From the NCBI GenBank assembly GCA_016390365.1, contig GCA_016390365.1_3043.1: a DNA stretch of 64,000 bases; one strand, written 5' to 3'. The notes beneath the pieces are model-generated. The model was not told the origin of the DNA, ran no database searches, and saw nothing but the letters and a program-made list of their open reading frames with translations. Below, piece after piece: positions 9,016 through 57,336 of the stretch (positions are counted from its first letter, which is position 1; each line of letters begins with the position of its first letter). Position numbers and translations under genes: made by a program. The DNA is from a phage.

Positions 9016-9210
9016 ATGCTAACACGTGAACAGTTTGAAAAAATTATTAAATTAGCACGTGATGTTGAAATAGATTCATATCAATTAGCAGTTGAGCATT
9101 GTGAAGGATACTCATACGATGGTATAGAAGCAGCTAAAAAGGATTTGGATAAATCCAAAGCTAAGTTAGTTCAATATCTTGAAATGATTAGGTGGAATAA
9201 TGAAAACTGA
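9016..9210 (+). CDS. hypothetical protein
   Basis: 64-codon ORF. Confidence 0.45.
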   Translation: MLTREQFEKIIKLARDVEIDSYQLAVEHCEGYSYDGIEAAKKDLDKSKAKLVQYLEMIRWNNEN

Positions 9211-9373
9211 AAAGCAGATGTTTTTAATGAAGCTAATTGAAGAATATGCTAATGCAGTTTCTGACTATGAGTATTCTGCTCGAGAAAGAGGTACAGCTTT
9301 CGCAAAGGAAGAAATGAAAATCATGGTTGATGCTCACACAAAGCTTCAGAATTTTATTGAAAACGTCATTTAA
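9200..9373 (+). CDS. hypothetical small protein
   Basis: 57-aa ORF MKTEKQMFLMKLIEEY, not in track; overlaps upstream stop. Confidence 0.35.
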   Translation: MKTEKQMFLMKLIEEYANAVSDYEYSARERGTAFAKEEMKIMVDAHTKLQNFIENVI

Positions 9374-9406
9374 TGGTTTACAAGTTGGCAAGGTTATGAT
9401 ATAGTA
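9372..9406 (+). promoter_or_regulatory. early promoter
   Basis: gtttac 9376-9381, 17-bp spacer, tatgatatagt. Confidence 0.45.
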
Positions 9407-9534
9407 ATCTTGTCAACTGCCAAGGAGAAGAGAATGAAAGTTTTGTTTGTTGTGTATGTGATGATTCAATATAATTATCCTTTGTTTACCTATAATCTGG
9501 TGAATAACATTATTGATATGATTCAGAGGAGTAT

Positions 9535-9723
9535 GTGATGACAAGTGAGCAGGCTTTTAAATTAAGAGAATTAATTGAAACATATAGCAAAGCTGTTCAT
9601 ACAGCAACAGTTATTGATGAATCAGCTTTCTCCGGACATGCTAACAAGATTAAATACAAAACTCTTATGGAAGAAGCTAAAGTAAATCTTGATTCTTATA
9701 TTGAAACTTTAATTGGTAAATAA
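9535..9723 (+). CDS. hypothetical protein
   Basis: 62-codon ORF. Confidence 0.4.
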   Translation: MMTSEQAFKLRELIETYSKAVHTATVIDESAFSGHANKIKYKTLMEEAKVNLDSYIETLIGK

Positions 9724-9724
9724 T

Positions 9725-10267
9725 ATGAAAGCTGTAATTGAAACAACTGATTTGTTCGGTGACCTGGTTATCGAAAAACGTGGTAATGTATACGTTCTGA
9801 CGCAGGAAGACGATAGTATTACTATTCTTCCTATGGAACTGGCTGCGATTTTATCTTATGCTCCCTCAGGAGTTACCGGTGTAACTAATATTACAGACGA
9901 CCTCCAAGTTCGTTTTTATCGTGGCCTTTACGGCGGTAATATTGAAACTGAATTTATGTGTCTTTCTATCAGCAATTGGGCAACATTCGTTGTCAAGGTG
10001 AAAGAATTCTTAGAATCTGAAACAGTCGAAACACCCGAAAAGACTAAACTTCAATGGGCTAAAGATCGCGGTGCTAACATTATTAATCCAGTAGCTGCAA
10101 ATTATACTACGACTTTGGATGTCAAGACTTCTTATGAAGATGGTGATGTCTTAACTATTCGTCAAATTGATGATTTTCGATCGTATATTGTCACATTTAC
10201 CAAAGACGAAGCTATTGCGCTAAAGACTTATCTCGATTCTGTCATTCCAACTATGATTTCAAAGTGA
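9725..10267 (+). CDS. hypothetical protein, paralog of the next ORF
   Basis: start ATG 9725; C-terminus TFTKDEAIALKTYLDSVIPTM resembles SLSKSEAEAMIKYLTTVTPSM of 10274..10795. Confidence 0.55.
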   Translation: MKAVIETTDLFGDLVIEKRGNVYVLTQEDDSITILPMELAAILSYAPSGVTGVTNITDDLQVRFYRGLYGGNIETEFMCLSISNWATFVVKVKEFLESETVETPEKTKLQWAKDRGANIINPVAANYTTTLDVKTSYEDGDVLTIRQIDDFRSYIVTFTKDEAIALKTYLDSVIPTMISK

Positions 10268-10273
10268 GGAAAT

Positions 10274-10795
10274 ATGTTTATTTCAAGTGGAAGTGGTTTA
10301 ATTCGTGTTGAATTTAAAAATGACATCTTCCTTATTCAAGGAGATGATATTATTAAAATGAGTTATGATGAAATTAAGAAAATTTGTAATGCTCTTGAAA
10401 GTCATGGAAAAGTGAACGCTGTTATTGATATTGGTGATTTATGGGTGACACTTTATGAAGTATCCGAAGGATTTAATATTGAAGATGAAAACAACATCTT
10501 AGCTATTGATAAAAGAAGCGATTTGTTTGATGTGTTAAAAGTTTATGAACAGTCAAACGGTGGAAGAAAAGCTGTATTGATTTATCAAAAACCACATTCA
10601 TGTGGAACTGCTTCAATCATTTCAGATATTGAAGATGAAACTGATACTTATATGTGTGTTTTAAAAGCTGGTGGTGACCGTCATCCGGATTTTATTTCTA
10701 TTCGTCAAAACAATGGAGAAATTTCATTATCAAAATCAGAAGCTGAAGCTATGATTAAGTATTTAACAACTGTTACACCTTCAATGAAAGGATAA
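10274..10795 (+). CDS. hypothetical protein, paralog of the previous ORF
   Basis: 173-codon ORF with shared C-terminal motif. Confidence 0.55.
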   Translation: MFISSGSGLIRVEFKNDIFLIQGDDIIKMSYDEIKKICNALESHGKVNAVIDIGDLWVTLYEVSEGFNIEDENNILAIDKRSDLFDVLKVYEQSNGGRKAVLIYQKPHSCGTASIISDIEDETDTYMCVLKAGGDRHPDFISIRQNNGEISLSKSEAEAMIKYLTTVTPSMKG

Positions 10796-10797
10796 TT

Positions 10798-10998
10798 ATG
10801 ATTATTAATGAAAACTCTTGGCACTATAAATTATTCAAACTGTTTAACGACGAATGGAAACGACCTAAGACACTGTGTGCATACTTTTGGTCTATTGTTA
10901 TCCCTACATTTTTCGTTTCTTTTTTCGGATGTACTATACTCGCAGGTCTAACTATTATCTGTGCAGAAATCATACAGAAATGGCTTATTTTTTGGTAG
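10798..10998 (+). CDS. hypothetical membrane protein (N-terminal part, possible frameshifted gene)
   Basis: hydrophobic TM segment; ORF ends at a T6 run where the next frame continues. Confidence 0.4.
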   Translation: MIINENSWHYKLFKLFNDEWKRPKTLCAYFWSIVIPTFFVSFFGCTILAGLTIICAEIIQKWLIFW

Positions 10999-11260
10999 TT
11001 TATGGACTCTTATTCCATCAGCATTTATACTTGCCATTTTGCTTATTTTACTTATTATTGGTTCATTTGTTATTCCTGCACAACTGCATGAAAAATATAA
11101 AGATTATAAATGGAAAAAGGATTATGCTTTACATGTAGAAAATATTGATAGGGCGTATAAAGGTTTACCTCCTATTCAACCCAAGAAATCTATTATCGTC
11201 GAATTTTTAAAAGCGCGTAAAGCTAAAGTATGTCCTGTTATTGAATATAAGGCTGAATGA
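10961..11260 (+). CDS. hypothetical membrane protein (C-terminal part, possible frameshifted gene)
   Basis: no ATG (track start is GTG); strongly hydrophobic LIPSAFILAILLILLIIGSFVIP. Confidence 0.4.
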   Translation: MQKSYRNGLFFGSLWTLIPSAFILAILLILLIIGSFVIPAQLHEKYKDYKWKKDYALHVENIDRAYKGLPPIQPKKSIIVEFLKARKAKVCPVIEYKAE

Positions 11261-12270
11261 TGAAAACAGTAATGAAAAGCTATTTTGGTAGTCATCTTTA
11301 TGGAACTTCTACCCCAGAATCTGATGTAGATTTTAAAGAAATCTTTGTTCCTCCTGCTCGCGATATTCTTATCGGAAATGTCAAAGAGCACATGAGTAAA
11401 AACACTAACAACACATCATCTAAAAACACTAAAGATGATATTGACCATGAACTATACAGTCTTAAGTATTTCTTTAAATTAGCGGCAGATGGTGAAACTG
11501 TAGCGTTGGATATGCTTCACACTCCACCTGAACTAGTGGTTAAATCTGATTTGCCTGATGTGTGGAAGTTTATTCAAGACAACCGTTCTCGTTTTTATAC
11601 GACTAACATGAAATCATATTTAGGATATGTCCGCAAGCAAGCTTCTAAATACGGTGTCAAGGGTTCTCGTTTGGCTGCATTACGTGATGTATTGAAAGTA
11701 GTTAATCAAATCCCTGAGCAATGGGTTGATTACCAAGAAGATGGTTCTATTAAGCAGCGTCGTACTAAAGTTGAAGATATTAAGCATCGTCTTCCAGAAA
11801 ACGAATTCTGTGAATGGGTGTTCCATAATCATGAGAAAACAGGCCCACAAACGTTCTACACTGTGTTGGGTCGTAAATATCAGACAACTCTTTCTCTTAT
11901 TGAGCTTAAGCAGTCACTGAACAAATTAGATGCTGAATACGGTGAACGTGCTCGTAAGGCCGAAGCCAACGAAGGCATTGACTGGAAAGCTCTGAGCCAT
12001 GCTTGTCGTGGTGGACTTCAACTATTGGAAATTTACAAAACTGGTGACTTGGTTTATCCACTCCAAGATGCTCCATTTATTCTCGACGTGAAGTTGGGTA
12101 AGCATCCATTTAAAACAGTTCAAGAGTTTTTGGAAGATGTGGTCGATCAAGTAGAAGCAGCATCTACTGAAGCTTCTAAGAACGGTATGCAGCAAAAAGT
12201 AGACATGGGTTTCTGGGATGACTTCCTTGAGAAGGTTTATCTTGAAAACCACCGAAGTTATTATAAATGA
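11257..12270 (+). CDS. predicted nucleotidyltransferase (Pol-beta-like NTase fold)
   Basis: signature GS-x10-DVD in YFGSHLYGTSTPESDVDF. Confidence 0.6.
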   Translation: MMKTVMKSYFGSHLYGTSTPESDVDFKEIFVPPARDILIGNVKEHMSKNTNNTSSKNTKDDIDHELYSLKYFFKLAADGETVALDMLHTPPELVVKSDLPDVWKFIQDNRSRFYTTNMKSYLGYVRKQASKYGVKGSRLAALRDVLKVVNQIPEQWVDYQEDGSIKQRRTKVEDIKHRLPENEFCEWVFHNHEKTGPQTFYTVLGRKYQTTLSLIELKQSLNKLDAEYGERARKAEANEGIDWKALSHACRGGLQLLEIYKTGDLVYPLQDAPFILDVKLGKHPFKTVQEFLEDVVDQVEAASTEASKNGMQQKVDMGFWDDFLEKVYLENHRSYYK

Positions 12271-12272
12271 TA

Positions 12273-12298
12273 GGGAGCCTTCGGGCTCCCTTTTTTTT
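12273..12298 (+). terminator. rho-independent terminator, UUCG tetraloop
   Basis: gggagcc-ttcg-ggctccc followed by T8. Confidence 0.8.
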
Positions 12299-12319
12299 AT
12301 TTCAAAAATTTTTTCACAA

Positions 12320-12387
12320 AATTGTTTACAAGCATAAAGCTTTATGGTACTATACAACTATCAACTGATACGGATTTGGAGAATAAA
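12320..12387 (+). promoter_or_regulatory. early promoter plus conserved leader (PeSL-like cassette)
   Basis: gtttac 12324-12329; TGGTACTATACAACTATCAACT core; leader GATTTGGAGAATAAAATG shared with 38697..38745. Confidence 0.55.
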
Positions 12388-13356
12388 ATGAAAACTGTAA
12401 CTATCAATAAGGGTATTTACTTCGGTAAAGAAATCTCTGGAACTTTTGAGCTCTTAGGCGAATGGTTCCCAGATAATGCTCCAGTAGATGCACAAGGAGA
12501 TGGTAAAGTTTTTGTTGAAATTGACGGTAAACGTCGCGGTGTTTGGGTTTACAAATCAGACATTTCATATGATGGTGTAAAAGTTGAAGAAGTTAAAGAA
12601 TCGTATGAAGATATGAAAACCCGCATTAATAAAAGATTTAATGTTATGGGAATGATGACGAATGGTATTATTAACGGAAACATTCGTTCATTAATTATCT
12701 CTGGTGCGGCAGGCATTGGTAAAACGTATTCTTTAGATAAAGCTTTAAATAAAGCAAATGATATTGGATACATTGAATATAAAAGCATTAATGGTAAAAT
12801 CTCTGGTATTGGTCTTTATGAACAGCTTTGGAATAATCGTGAAGAGAATTCTGTCCTTTTGATTGATGATGTGGATGTTTTCTCTGATATGGACATTCTT
12901 AATCTTCTGAAAGCTGCTCTGGACACCGGAGAGACCCGTAAAGTCTGCTGGAGCACTGCGTCTTCTTACTTAGAAGAAAAAGGCATTGAGCGTGAGTTTG
13001 AATTTAAAGGAACGATTGTTTTTATCACAAACGTTGACATTGACCGCGAATTAGACCGTGGTACTAAACTTGCTCCACATTTACAAGCATTAGTGTCCCG
13101 CTCAGTTTATTTGGATTTGGGTGTTCACACTAATGAAGAAATTATGGTCAGGGTTGAAGATGTTATTCTTTCAACTGACATGATGCAAAAGCGCGGTCTT
13201 TCTGATGAAGAAACTTATAAAGCATTATCATGGATGAAAGTTAATGTTAATCGTTTACGCAATGTTTCACTGCGTACTGCTCTTTATCTTGCTGACTTTA
13301 TTATGACCGACAAAAACGGTTGGGAAGAAATTGCTGAGGTTACTCTTCTGAAATAA
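12388..13356 (+). CDS. AAA+/P-loop ATPase
   Basis: Walker A ISGAAGIGKT, Walker B VLLIDDVD, sensor-like FITN; start ATG 12388. Confidence 0.6.
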   Translation: MKTVTINKGIYFGKEISGTFELLGEWFPDNAPVDAQGDGKVFVEIDGKRRGVWVYKSDISYDGVKVEEVKESYEDMKTRINKRFNVMGMMTNGIINGNIRSLIISGAAGIGKTYSLDKALNKANDIGYIEYKSINGKISGIGLYEQLWNNREENSVLLIDDVDVFSDMDILNLLKAALDTGETRKVCWSTASSYLEEKGIEREFEFKGTIVFITNVDIDRELDRGTKLAPHLQALVSRSVYLDLGVHTNEEIMVRVEDVILSTDMMQKRGLSDEETYKALSWMKVNVNRLRNVSLRTALYLADFIMTDKNGWEEIAEVTLLK

Positions 13357-13454
13357 TTCATAAGAGGACTTCTATGACAAAAAGGCAGTTCAGAAATAGA
13401 TTATATGGACTGCCATTAAAAAGATGACTAGAATTAAACTGGTGAATGGAGGTA

Positions 13455-13760
13455 ATGATGTTATACTCAAAGGCTCGTGAAATTTACGAAACTAAAATTA
13501 AAGAAGCAGTATTTAAGTTCGCAACGACAATGCGATGGACAAATGACTGGGAGTATTCAAAAAATCATAAGAAGCCCATGGTGACAAGAAAGGCTCATAT
13601 GTTAGTGTTAATAGACCGTGAGCAGATTAAAGCCCGAGAAGCCCTCCAGAATCATAAAAAGGCTGCCTTTGAATGGTTTATGGATAACACTGCTCCTGAG
13701 ACTAAGAAAGCGGTAAGCGCATGGTTCAGTGGAAAAAATTGTGAAAGAAGTTTCTTTTAG
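13455..13760 (+). CDS. hypothetical protein
   Basis: start chosen at ATG 13455 after SD ggagg. Confidence 0.45.
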   Translation: MMLYSKAREIYETKIKEAVFKFATTMRWTNDWEYSKNHKKPMVTRKAHMLVLIDREQIKAREALQNHKKAAFEWFMDNTAPETKKAVSAWFSGKNCERSFF

Positions 13761-13805
13761 TGGTTTACAAGACTGTTCCTCTGTGGTACTATACAACTAT
13801 CAACT
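13760..13805 (+). promoter_or_regulatory. early promoter plus conserved core (PeSL-like cassette)
   Basis: gtttac 13764-13769; TGGTACTATACAACTATCAACT core 13784-13805. Confidence 0.5.
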
Positions 13806-13820
13806 ACGGAGGAACACAAA

Positions 13821-14348
13821 ATGAACGCTAAAGATATTTTCAACCTGGTAAATTACAACGATGGTAAATTTAAATCTGAAGCACAAAGCAAGTTCTTTAA
13901 TGACATCTCAATCGGAGGTGAAATCACGGTTGATGGAGGACAAATTTACAAATCTCGTTGGAATTGGATCGTTATTATCGATGAGATTGGTATTGTAGAA
14001 ATTTACAAGAATACGAATAAAAATCGTACATTACACTGGTCTCGTGATACTAACGAACAGTACAAAAAGGATAAAGCATCTAAATTATCTCGTGTAACTC
14101 AAGAAGATATTGAGTTCATCAAGAAAGATATTTTGATGTATGATAACTTAATTGCTGAAGAGCAAGCTGTTATTGATAAATTTGACGAGATTAAAGCTTC
14201 TCGTGAAATTCCTGATTTTATGAAAGAATCAGTAAATGAACGATACACTCTCATTTCAGAGCGTATTGAAACTTACAAAAAGCAAAGAGCTGAACGCCAG
14301 AATACTCTTCGGAAGTTTGAAGAACGGTTAAAGACGGTACTCGCATAA
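13821..14348 (+). CDS. hypothetical protein
   Basis: 175-codon ORF after SD ggagg. Confidence 0.5.
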   Translation: MNAKDIFNLVNYNDGKFKSEAQSKFFNDISIGGEITVDGGQIYKSRWNWIVIIDEIGIVEIYKNTNKNRTLHWSRDTNEQYKKDKASKLSRVTQEDIEFIKKDILMYDNLIAEEQAVIDKFDEIKASREIPDFMKESVNERYTLISERIETYKKQRAERQNTLRKFEERLKTVLA

Positions 14349-14403
14349 CCGCTTTATACCAAGGATGGTATAATGGTTCTAAGCCCTTTTAATTGAGATT
14401 ATT

Positions 14404-14811
14404 ATGAAACAGTTGATAATTAAAAGATTGAATTTATTGATATGTTGTTTATGTATAGTAATTGCATATGGTTATTACGCAATTAATGATTATATGCATT
14501 ATAAAGATTATGATGTTACTGTAGTTAATACCTTTACAGGAACTCAAGGAAAGGGGTCTAGTTTATCGTTTATTGCCGTATATGAACTAAATGACGGTTA
14601 TAGATTTAGCGAATATATTTCACCGGAGATGTATTCTTCAATAGAAAAAGGTGATAATATTACTGTAAGTTTACGTCCTTTCGACGTAAAACAGACATTG
14701 TTTGATAATATTGTTTGGTTCTTTGGAATGGTATTAGTTCAATCTGTGTGTGGTGCTTATATAGTCTGTTCCATCTTATTCTGTATATTTAGTAAAATTG
14801 AAATTGAGTGA
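14404..14811 (+). CDS. hypothetical membrane protein
   Basis: N-terminal and C-terminal hydrophobic segments. Confidence 0.45.
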   Translation: MKQLIIKRLNLLICCLCIVIAYGYYAINDYMHYKDYDVTVVNTFTGTQGKGSSLSFIAVYELNDGYRFSEYISPEMYSSIEKGDNITVSLRPFDVKQTLFDNIVWFFGMVLVQSVCGAYIVCSILFCIFSKIEIE

Positions 14812-56279: not shown

Positions 56280-56633
56280 ATGAAAATTTATCGTGTTGAA
56301 TCATCGTTTAGCGCATTAAATGATGATAGTGGTATAATGAAAATTAGGAAAGAGTTATGCGTCCAATCGACTCCTTATCGTGGATTTGATTCTATGAAAA
56401 CTCGAACTTGGTTAAAATTTTGTGGTATTAATTCATCATCATTTCATCATCATAGCGATAATTATGAAAGTCATGAAAGTATTCCTATTCCACACGATGA
56501 TAAGTTATTAGTTGAAAATGCTAATGATGCTATTAAAACTAAATGGAATAAAGATTATTTACGAATTGAAAATTATATTCCATTGTGGTTTATTGCATTA
56601 TATCTTTTGCTTTCGCTACTGAATATGATATGA
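56280..56633 (+). CDS. hypothetical protein with C-terminal hydrophobic segment
   Basis: start ATG 56280; His-rich SSSFHHHSDNYESHES; C-terminal TM-like tail. Confidence 0.45.
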   Translation: MKIYRVESSFSALNDDSGIMKIRKELCVQSTPYRGFDSMKTRTWLKFCGINSSSFHHHSDNYESHESIPIPHDDKLLVENANDAIKTKWNKDYLRIENYIPLWFIALYLLLSLLNMI

Positions 56634-56791
56634 TGAGATGGTTCACCCGAGAAGAGCGTGAAGACTTAAAAGATCGTGGAATGTACACTGCGATTTATGA
56701 AGTGCCAGATGACCAAGTTATCATTGGTGGGCATCAAGTAATGTTCCGTAAATCCCATGCTGAACTTGTAGATTTTATTGAAATGAGATAA
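56630..56791 (+). CDS. hypothetical small protein
   Basis: start ATGATG 56630 overlapping upstream stop. Confidence 0.4.
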   Translation: MMRWFTREEREDLKDRGMYTAIYEVPDDQVIIGGHQVMFRKSHAELVDFIEMR

Positions 56792-56793
56792 TT

Positions 56794-57336
56794 ATGAAAT
56801 TTAATTATAATCCTGAATACACACCGAATCCTGTAGATAAACCGTTTGATATGGATATAGCAAGCATGTACGGCACTCTTGTTAAACCATTAGAAATTAA
56901 GGAAACATTTATGACTGCTCGGACCATCGAAACTGGCAAAACCTACAAACTGGTTGAAACTGAAATTAAAACTACTGAACTAGATTTGGGTTATAAAGCA
57001 TTGACTAGTGTTTTTGGTGAAGGCGAGTTTGTGGTTAAAAGTTTTTCAAAAAGTAATTGGCATGATAAGAATAAAGCTTATGTGATTCGAGCACATCGCT
57101 TAGATAATGATGAAGTAATTAAAACTATAGTCTTTGAAGCAGAGCTTATCCTCTTCCAAGAAGTTGATCCTACTGACCTTTTGACTCGTGCAGTTGCTAT
57201 CAAGACTCCATTCATTTGCGTCTGCGGTTGGGTAACAGACCAATGGATTGAAGATGGTGTTGAACTCCTGAACGTTGTTCATGCAGGTGATTTTAGCGTA
57301 GTACCTCGTAGTGCAGTGGTAGCTATTTTGAATTAA
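56794..57336 (+). CDS. MotB-like paralog
   Basis: C-terminal motif ICVCGWVTDQWIEDGVELLNVVHAGDFSVVPRS parallels MCAYITDQWVEDGVKLYNAVFLGTYKVIPES of motB. Confidence 0.5.
   Translation: MKFNYNPEYTPNPVDKPFDMDIASMYGTLVKPLEIKETFMTARTIETGKTYKLVETEIKTTELDLGYKALTSVFGEGEFVVKSFSKSNWHDKNKAYVIRAHRLDNDEVIKTIVFEAELILFQEVDPTDLLTRAVAIKTPFICVCGWVTDQWIEDGVELLNVVHAGDFSVVPRSAVVAILN

Follow-up and report, generated by a model that had tools for sequence, protein, structure and literature searches.

Two neighboring genes of a T-even phage, one with the signature of a Pol-beta-type nucleotidyltransferase (NTase) and the other with the motifs of an AAA+ ATPase, raise two questions: what does the NTase do in the infected cell, and does it act together with the ATPase encoded next to it? 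We address both for a stretch of 64,000 nucleotides (the window) from contig GCA_016390365.1_3043.1 of GenBank assembly GCA_016390365.1. The window comes from a T-even (Tequatrovirus) phage of the T2/T4 type and is given on the strand opposite to the T4 map. Its two genes are nrdC.11 and nrdC.10, both of them known, annotated T4 genes whose domain assignments were published long ago. We favor the reading that these are two independent, catalogued early genes, nrdC.11 encoding an RlaP-family NTase that would serve in healing RNA ends and nrdC.10 an unlinked AAA+ ATPase; we give this reading a probability of about 0.6.

NrdC.11 and the RlaP family

The phage records matched by a 2.6-kb query around both genes number 728; in 479 the match spans most of the query, and the best reach 99% identity. 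The two open reading frames (ORFs) are syntenic with nrdC.11 ("nucleotidyltransferase") and nrdC.10 ("hypothetical protein") in the annotated records of T4 and UFV13. NrdC.11 of the window is identical to T4 NrdC.11 at 330 of 336 residues (98%) and to the phage T2 protein, its cluster representative, at 100%, and NrdC.10 agrees with its T4 counterpart at 314 of 316 aligned residues (99%). A first-pass annotation of this DNA had treated the pair as unexplored, but the assignments of nrdC.11 to NTases (COG3541) and of nrdC.10 to AAA proteins date from 2006 (PMC1524935), and the assignment of T4 NrdC.11 to RlaP followed in 2025 (PMC12776372). Orthologue annotations put the start of nrdC.11 at the second ATG, 11260, and residue numbers below are those of the resulting 336-residue form. 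The features of nrdC.11 to which we refer are as follows.

11260..12270, + strand: nrdC.11 coding sequence, 336 residues, RlaP-family Pol-beta-type NTase (the alternative ATG at 11257 gives 337 residues)
11287..11331, + strand: NTase signature G10 S11-x10-D22-V23-D24, with G10 S11 at 11287-11292 and D22-D24 at 11323-11331
11443..11445, + strand: third carboxylate, D62, invariant and aligned with D72 of canonical RlaP
11719..11883, + strand: beta-rich insertion, residues ~154-208, specific to the NrdC.11-type branch and not in the canonical 250-residue RlaP
11986..12009, + strand: motif K243-x3-H247-x2-R250 (DWKAxSHAxR) of the C-terminal helical domain, with K243, H247 and R250 invariant

NrdC.11 matches the Pfam family RlaP (PF10127) with 44.2 bits against a gathering cut-off of 23 (E 2.5e-11), over residues 7-135 only, and PF10127 was present in 120 of 120 homologues among the matches listed. 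PHROG 388, "nucleotidyltransferase", matches the protein from end to end (E 8e-137). Relatives of NrdC.11 number 3,416 cluster representatives (clusters at 50% identity, E <= 0.001), 828 of them below 1e-30, and most of those among the matches listed are full length, with 300-350 residues. In an alignment of 50 diverse homologues that share 34-54% identity with the query, the invariant positions are G10, S11, G15, S21, D22, D24, N56, D62, Y123, Y131, R230, K243, H247, A248, R250, P267 and K278. As judged from this alignment, the three carboxylates expected of a two-metal Pol-beta-type NTase, D22, D24 and D62, are present and invariant in NrdC.11. The ORF at 11257..12270 and the GS-x10-DVD signature read in it by the first-pass annotation are thus borne out, as are the catalytic aspartates, whose absence on careful alignment it had named as grounds for giving up the assignment. 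That annotation also listed CCA-adding, CD-NTase-like and MNT enzymes as classes in which the protein might fall; NrdC.11 falls in RlaP, with no match to PF01743 or to a CD-NTase. The T4 reference NrdC.11 (13436-14446 of the T4 record stretch used) has N60 where the window and at least 90% of the family have D, and an X at position 101.

The AlphaFold (AF2) model of NrdC.11 built on the 50-homologue alignment has a predicted local distance difference test score (pLDDT) of 93.5 and a predicted template modeling score (pTM) of 0.81. An N-terminal alpha/beta NTase core is followed in it by a helical region, by the beta-rich insertion (~154-208) and, at the C terminus, by a bundle of helices. No PDB entry was matched in sequence searches with NrdC.11, the 50-sequence profile or canonical RlaP, the PfRlaP crystal structure not being in the copy searched. 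We consider it very probable that NrdC.11 is an active NTase of the RlaP family.

The first biochemical account of RlaP enzymes is a preprint of December 2025 by Carruthers, Fatma and Huang (PMC12776372). The enzymes assayed, PfRlaP and PaRlaP, are from Pseudomonas, where they are encoded between rtcB and rtcA. They attach one or two nucleoside monophosphates (NMPs) to the 3'-OH of RNA with little base specificity, prefer Mn2+, and are inactive on DNA and protein; E. coli proteins or DNA were not labeled (PMC12776372). Among tRNA substrates they favor the 5' half left by a nick in the anticodon loop over the acceptor-side fragment, and they also label full-length tRNAs. For a tRNA lacking one nucleotide of the anticodon loop, RlaP treatment before ligation partly restored aminoacylation, and the authors propose that RlaP is an antidote to "smart" ribotoxins such as RloC, which trim a nucleotide after cutting (PMC12776372). 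That RlaP restores lost nucleotides before ligation was predicted earlier: a jumbo-phage survey of 2021 (PMC7824862) and the preprint (PMC12776372) both cite Burroughs and Aravind (2016) for it. For RlaP as a family the idea has already been published. In the similarity network of the preprint, T4 NrdC.11 lies in cluster 5 of the family and the assayed enzymes lie in cluster 1a (PMC12776372).

We compared the NrdC.11 profile by hhalign with a profile of ten canonical 250-residue RlaPs drawn from bacterial loci. The two aligned with a probability of 93.9 (E 1.6e-7) over 82 columns, covering residues 3-92 only, with GS, D22, D24 and D62 of NrdC.11 in register with GS, D39, D41 and D72 of canonical RlaP. 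When the insertion was deleted from NrdC.11, the alignment extended to 210-232 columns and its score was not raised. The isolated C-terminal domains aligned with a marginal E of 0.045, with K243-x3-H247-x2-R250 in register with an invariant K-x3-Y-x2-R of RlaP. Homology between the substrate-binding half of NrdC.11 and that of the assayed RlaPs is therefore plausible on the profile comparison. On sequence, NrdC.11 is a member of the Pfam family that belongs to a distinct RlaP branch, marked by an insertion of ~90 residues, and is ~85 residues longer than the canonical form.

RNA-repair genes beside NrdC.11-type homologues

In the window, nrdC.11 is the final gene of a tightly packed run of small ORFs, and its neighbors are small and uninformative. 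Because the neighborhood in the window says so little, we collected homologues of the NrdC.11 branch from elsewhere. The bacterial set comprised 72 bacterial and archaeal loci at 32-54% identity, with neighbor families confirmed by Pfam. In 17 of the 72, a gene for a canonical 250-residue RlaP lies directly downstream on the same strand (loci L007, L009, L022, L024, L025, L030, L033, L036, L052, L055, L056, L060, L067, L073, L075, L077 and L080). RtcB and Pnkp each occur in 5 loci, Hen1 and Ro60/TROVE each in 4, and any of these four in 12; at least one of RtcB, Pnkp, Hen1, Ro60 or a second RlaP is found in 24 of the 72. The tandem NTase and RlaP genes often stand within Pnkp/Hen1 or RtcB/Ro60 operons, as in the orders Hen1>Pnkp>NTase>RlaP, RtcB>NTase>RlaP and Ro60>RtcB>..>NTase>RlaP>Hen1. 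Such pairing of two RlaP branches in bacteria suggests a division of labor, a heteromer or otherwise non-redundant roles. A second RlaP was not found in 80 viral NrdC.11-type loci, nor in the window.

These 80 viral loci are non-T4 contigs whose NTase is 36-52% identical to the seed, and they were set against a control of 44 viral loci centered on NrdC.10 homologues. Of the NrdC.11-type loci, 11 encode a T4-type polynucleotide kinase-phosphatase (Pnk; domains AAA_33 and HAD_PNKP) no more than 6 kb away. By ORF clustering, RNA ligase (PF09414) is present in 7 and RtcB in 6, and at least one of Pnk, RNA ligase and RtcB in 21 of the 79 anchored viral loci; the more sensitive tblastn count finds at least one of the three within 6 kb in 23 of the 80 loci and in none of the 44 controls (Fisher 1.5e-5). 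tRNA genes accompany the NTase in 23 of 80 loci and the control gene in 4 of 44 (p 0.012), several of them within tens of bases of the NTase. HD or HD_4 phosphohydrolases are encoded in ~20 viral NrdC.11-type loci. In Rheinheimera phage Barba31A (L089 4250-6900), a class II CCA-adding enzyme (PolyA_pol plus HD), a 139-residue ORF and the NrdC.11-type NTase follow one another on one strand. The 139-residue ORF has no Pfam match, and a viral scan with the Barba31A protein alone matched only Barba31A.

Together these neighborhoods point one way: genes of the NrdC.11-type branch keep company with genes for healing and sealing RNA breaks. The association is found for homologues of the same branch and not inside the window.

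Two further features of the viral loci may be recorded. An HD_4 gene (SpoT/RelA-type HD hydrolase) lies within a few hundred bases of the NTase in 11 of them, and 9 more have a plain HD gene (L107, L102, L119, L129, L138 and L092 are among these loci); the hydrolases could remove 2',3'-cyclic phosphates or hydrolyze alarmones. On a 13-kb viral contig (L137), the NrdC.11-type NTase gene is preceded, at a distance of a few kb, by a tmRNA-like gene that ARAGORN predicts at 506-853, with the tag AKLKAANDNNLYSEWKLAA, and by three predicted tRNA genes.

RNA or tRNA end repair is the best-supported function of NrdC.11, because its homologues adjoin RNA-repair genes. Of the two roles put forward by the first-pass annotation, this one agrees both with RlaP membership and with the RNA-repair and tRNA neighborhoods of the subfamily. 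By analogy with the two assayed RlaPs, D22, D24 and D62 of NrdC.11 would most likely coordinate a pair of metal ions, and the enzyme would extend the 3'-OH end of broken RNA by one or two NMPs without a template. Pnk and RNA ligase 1 (Rnl1) are established products of T-even phages (Amitsur et al. 1987, as cited in PMC12776372), with their genes outside the window, and a pathway of three steps can be envisaged. Pnk would remove the 2',3'-cyclic phosphate and phosphorylate the 5' end, NrdC.11 would then restore the nucleotide removed by a "trimming" anticodon nuclease of the RloC type, and Rnl1 would seal the break. What we infer here is that the substrate is RNA, how many nucleotides it receives, and that Pnk and Rnl are partners of NrdC.11. 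The 3'-OH product expected of NrdC.11 would suit the 5'-phosphate ligases of T-even phages, as we read the findings of PMC12776372, and the incompatibility with RtcB discussed in that preprint does not arise here, because T-even phages use 5'-phosphate ligases. For a specific role in the repair of tRNA, we put the chances at about even.

Other activities are conceivable for an NTase of this fold. NrdC.11 might repair or complete the 3' acceptor (CCA) end of tRNA, supplementing the host CCA-adding enzyme. The gene row of Barba31A would fit such a role, as would the tRNA genes that abut the NTase gene in several viral contigs and the capacity of RlaPs to label full-length tRNAs with little specificity for the nucleoside triphosphate. 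NrdC.11 does not match PF01743, however, and no CCA-adding enzyme appears among its structural matches. The assayed RlaPs stop after one or two nucleotides, show no base specificity and act better on the anticodon-loop nick than on the acceptor-side fragment, and the neighbors of the homologues are mostly Pnk, RNA ligase and RtcB, which CCA repair does not need. Some T4 tRNAs presumably depend on the host cca enzyme, which also argues against a CCA-adding activity of the phage. We consider this role unlikely. We give still less credence to a nucleotidylylation of proteins or small molecules by NrdC.11, such as MntA antitoxins or KNTase, ANT and LinB carry out. Structural matches to KNTase, MNT and HEPN-like proteins weakly suggest it, but their scores are low and reflect a common architecture of minimal NTase plus helical bundle. 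NrdC.11 has neither the HEPN R-x4-6-H motif nor a HEPN partner gene, the neighborhood of its homologues is one of RNA repair, and the assayed RlaPs left E. coli proteins and DNA unlabeled (PMC12776372).

Nucleotide signaling, the other role put forward by the first-pass annotation, fares no better. NrdC.11 would in this case make either a HalB-like, protein-primed oligo-dA that keeps a Hailong-type channel closed or a CD-NTase-like messenger. A structural match to HalB and the invariant tyrosines hint weakly at the former, but the similarity to HalB is that of a generic NTase core plus helices (Foldseek E 6e-3, template modeling score (TM) ~0.25-0.37), and sequence places NrdC.11 in RlaP, HalB's own Pfam family having been left unchecked. 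PADLOC finds no match for NrdC.11 or NrdC.10, and no CD-NTase or cGAS structure is among the matches. The homologues stand in RNA-repair operons and not beside channels or effectors, and the neighbors in the window are not effectors either. We see only a faint chance that NrdC.11 makes such a signal, and RNA-end healing remains the function that we prefer.

A bolder version of RNA-end healing makes three claims at once. NrdC.11 would be the missing third enzyme of T-even tRNA repair, refilling the wobble nucleotide excised by an RloC-type nuclease so that Rnl1 then seals a full-length loop; the NrdC.11 type would be a structurally distinct RlaP branch that in bacteria forms an obligate pair with canonical RlaP; and NrdC.10 would represent a new, phage-specific AAA+ clade. 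Taken jointly these claims are tentative, with the odds clearly against all three holding together.

NrdC.10 and its relation to NrdC.11

The first-pass annotation set the NTase and the ATPase under one title, with the implication that the two form a pair, and both the DNA between the genes and their distribution among phages bear on this. The relevant features are listed here.

12272..12299, + strand: intrinsic terminator directly after the stop codon of nrdC.11, ending its transcription unit
12325..12353, + strand: promoter-like site of the T4 early type, TTTACA-17 nt-TACTAT with TG upstream, preceded by an A/T-rich stretch
12388..13356, + strand: nrdC.10 coding sequence, 322 residues, with a GGAG ribosome-binding site at 12378-12381
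12703..12726, + strand: Walker A motif GAAGIGKT (G106-T113), with G106, G109, G111 and K112 invariant in 32 homologues
12856..12876, + strand: Walker B motif LLIDDVD, with D160 and D161 invariant in 32 homologues
13030..13101, + strand: from sensor 1 N215 (13030-13032) to R238 of the S-R-S motif (13099-13101), invariant columns

The terminator has an 8-bp GC-rich stem with a UUCG loop, AGGGAGCC-TTCG-GGCTCCCT, at 12272-12291, with T8 behind it, and folds at -18.6 kcal/mol, with a z of -4.1 against shuffled sequence. The strong terminator that the first-pass annotation had seen between the genes is thus confirmed. The promoter that it placed after the terminator survives as a T4-early-type site at 12325-12353, a candidate on consensus and position, since the promoter scan as a whole found 28 sites against 25 +/- 5 in shuffled sequence and so showed no enrichment. 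We take ATG 12388 as the start of nrdC.10 and not the TTG listed at 12322, because the latter sits within the promoter. Three promoter-like sites of the window, at 9377-9405, 12325-12353 and 13764-13792, have in common the shape TTTACA-17 nt-TA(C/T)(T/A)(A/G)T with an upstream TG. Each precedes a gene or gene block, as would be expected if T4 early promoters recur along the nrdC.x region.

Could NrdC.11 and NrdC.10 nevertheless form a module, for example a machine for counter-defense or repair, with the ATPase loading or remodeling the substrate of the NTase? The genes are same-strand neighbors in the window, in Tequatrovirus, in related genera and in T4-like phages of Acinetobacter, down to an NrdC.10 identity of ~66%. 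This order is confined to such relatives, however. Among 31 viral loci with NrdC.10, the genes adjoin only in the 9 whose NrdC.10 shares ~66% or more identity with that of the window (Acinetobacter phages Acj9 and Acj61 can be added to these), and the other 22, at <=58% identity, have no NrdC.11 homologue within 5 kb. In Aeromonas phage B614, on a 179-kb metagenomic contig (ENA) and in a Vibrio record the genes are apart or one of them is locally absent, and in Vibrio phage V07 the two homologues are 62 kb apart. Conversely, an NrdC.10 homologue was found in 0 of the 80 diverse viral NrdC.11-type loci, and a search of the 31 viral loci for a conserved partner of NrdC.10 revealed none beyond T4-like synteny. 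Phage records with NrdC.11 number 1,518 and those with NrdC.10 number 1,312, and the survey of 2006 reported nrdC.10 in 3 of 6 T4-like genomes and nrdC.11 in more (PMC1524935). A strong terminator and a separate promoter-like site stand between the genes, and the conserved neighbors of the NrdC.11 type in the 72 bacterial loci are RNA-repair genes. We therefore assign a module only a slight probability. Because they are adjacent only in close relatives of T4, the two genes are not a module: their juxtaposition is inherited gene order and not functional coupling, and the pairing implied by the first-pass title does not stand.

NrdC.10 itself belongs to PHROG 1250, of unknown function (E 1e-166); none of the libraries searched assigns this family a function, and NrdC.10 has no functionally characterized close relative. 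The P-loop ATPase called by the first-pass annotation from GAAGIGKT and LLIDDVD holds, with both motifs present and an AAA+ fold in the model. Conservation was judged from 32 homologues, down to 55% identity; R291 and R296 are also invariant in these, together with W188, T190 and S192 of the segment before sensor 1. The AF2 model (pLDDT 89.7) begins with a five-stranded N-terminal beta domain (1-62) and a long linker helix, followed by the AAA+ alpha/beta core and a helical lid; the core has five strands, and five helices are bundled at the C terminus. In the model N215, which would act as sensor 1, ends strand 4, and R238, probably the arginine finger in a setting that resembles the SRC motif of clamp loaders, ends helix 4; R291 and R296 lie in the lid, where they may serve as sensor 2. 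By its motifs NrdC.10 is a stand-alone AAA+ ATPase with all catalytic motifs intact. That it remodels nucleic acid or protein, as clamp-loader, RarA and initiator ATPases do, is only a guess.

Comparisons of NrdC.10 with other AAA+ proteins spread widely. The top Foldseek matches listed for the model were all AAA+ (probability ~1.0, E ~1e-5, query-normalized TM <= 0.43), and they range over E1 helicase, ORC/Cdc6, dynein, NSF, RFC, RuvB and Hda. AAA_22 was matched by 29 of the 32 homologues at E < 0.01, below threshold, and in NCBIfam NrdC.10 matches only Hda (E 0.017). Weak profile matches were obtained to a PHROG clamp loader (E 1e-4) and, in the PDB profile search, to Cdc6 (E 0.14), and hhalign of NrdC.10 against gp44 of the window gave a probability of 0.5 (E 0.13). 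NrdC.10-like cores (query residues ~70-322, 31-43% identity) also occur in the jumbo phages NC_025447 (121Q), NC_042116 (fHe-Yen9-04) and NC_042013 (Atu_ph07). These and other viral cores of this kind (L188, L190-L198) are without the T4-type N-terminal beta domain.

Several observations weigh against the reading of an RNA-end-healing NTase beside an unlinked AAA+ ATPase. No activity of NrdC.11 itself has been reported, and the preprint labels T4 NrdC.11 an "RlaP of unknown function" (PMC12776372). The C-terminal ~240 residues of NrdC.11 are not significantly similar to canonical RlaP, and its choice of substrate could differ, because the significant similarity is limited to ~90 N-terminal residues. 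Within the window there is no Pnk, RNA ligase or tRNA gene near nrdC.11, and a scan of the whole window for tRNA genes and Rfam families found none. In T4 the genes for Pnk, RNA ligase and tRNAs are not near nrdC.11 but in other parts of the genome, and because they lie elsewhere, the link to RNA repair inside a T-even phage is drawn by analogy. The neighborhood counts given above are indicative and not exact, because the loci are related and non-independent and the control set is not random. Under laboratory conditions nrdC.11 can be deleted from T4 (PMC9825161), which fits an accessory role without showing which. On the side of the ATPase, NrdC.10 stays below every curated Pfam and NCBIfam threshold, the best being AAA_14 with 23.5 bits against 27, and only generic signals, with no specific AAA+ clade, emerged from Pfam on the 32 homologues, the PDB profile search, hhalign against gp44 and Foldseek.

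Flanking genes and comparison with known systems

The gene directly upstream of nrdC.11 encodes a membrane protein, which in phage UFV13 is a single ORF of 153 residues. In the window (10798-11260) an extra T (T6 against T5, in the run at 10988-10993) splits this gene into overlapping ORFs at 10798-10998 and 10961-11260. The gene could be a pseudogene, the homopolymer could have been misread in sequencing, or slippage could occur at this site. Homologues of the membrane protein precede nrdC.11 in 9 of 9 T4-like viral loci examined. In T4 (56429-57208), the place of this gene immediately upstream of nrdC.11 is occupied by mobD, an HNH homing endonuclease gene that is absent from the window between the mobD.1-like genes and nrdC.11 (~10795-11260). 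Further upstream, the ORFs at 9713-10267 (184 residues) and 10274-10795 (173 residues) are tandem MobD.1-like paralogues, with 28% identity over 173 residues (E 2e-5). The small ORFs at 9016-9723 may likewise be related to one another as short helical paralogues, to judge from their translations alone.

RNA repair was first discovered in T4, where Pnk and RNA ligase undo the cleavage of tRNA-Lys by PrrC, and nucleases that excise the wobble nucleotide, such as RloC, have been proposed to defeat repair by Pnk and ligase. If NrdC.11 restores the lost nucleotide, it would be the answer of the phage to RloC-type nucleases, and a pathway known for 35 years would gain a third step. With nucleotide restoration already proposed for the family, what the present analysis adds is that the NrdC.11-type branch itself, and not only canonical RlaP, sits in RNA-repair and tRNA neighborhoods, both in bacteria and in non-T4 phages. 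It also adds the large insertion by which this branch differs from the assayed enzymes, its frequent tandem arrangement with canonical RlaP in bacteria, and the finding that the adjoining AAA+ gene is unrelated to NrdC.11. Should the tandem pair prove obligate, it would imply a division of labor between two RNA-end NTases that nobody has described.

Among known systems, T4 NrdC.11 (NP_049709, "nucleotidyltransferase") is the orthologue of the window protein, and in both phages the gene lies between the mobD region and nrdC.10. T4 NrdC.10 (NP_049708) is likewise the orthologue of its window counterpart, from which it differs in nothing of note. For NrdC.10, the likeness to clamp-loader, RarA and initiator ATPases (T4 gp44, RFC, Cdc6/ORC and Hda) lies in the order of motifs, namely hhhDD, LL..ALD.GE, the TN of sensor 1 and SRS at the place of S-R-C; it differs from them in its private N-terminal beta domain and the conserved insert before sensor 1. 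Hailong HalB (PDB 9dbh), with 15% identity to NrdC.11, is a tetramer of a 217-residue protein that makes protein-primed oligo-dA and has the channel HalA as its partner, whereas NrdC.11 has no channel partner gene and belongs by sequence to RlaP. PfRlaP and PaRlaP share with NrdC.11 the Pol-beta NTase core with GS and three aspartates, and the order of an N-terminal NTase domain and a C-terminal helical domain. They are associated with RtcB or RNA-ligase repair operons, as are the NrdC.11-type homologues. From these enzymes NrdC.11 differs in being ~85 residues longer, in carrying the beta-rich insertion (~154-208) and in falling into a separate similarity cluster.

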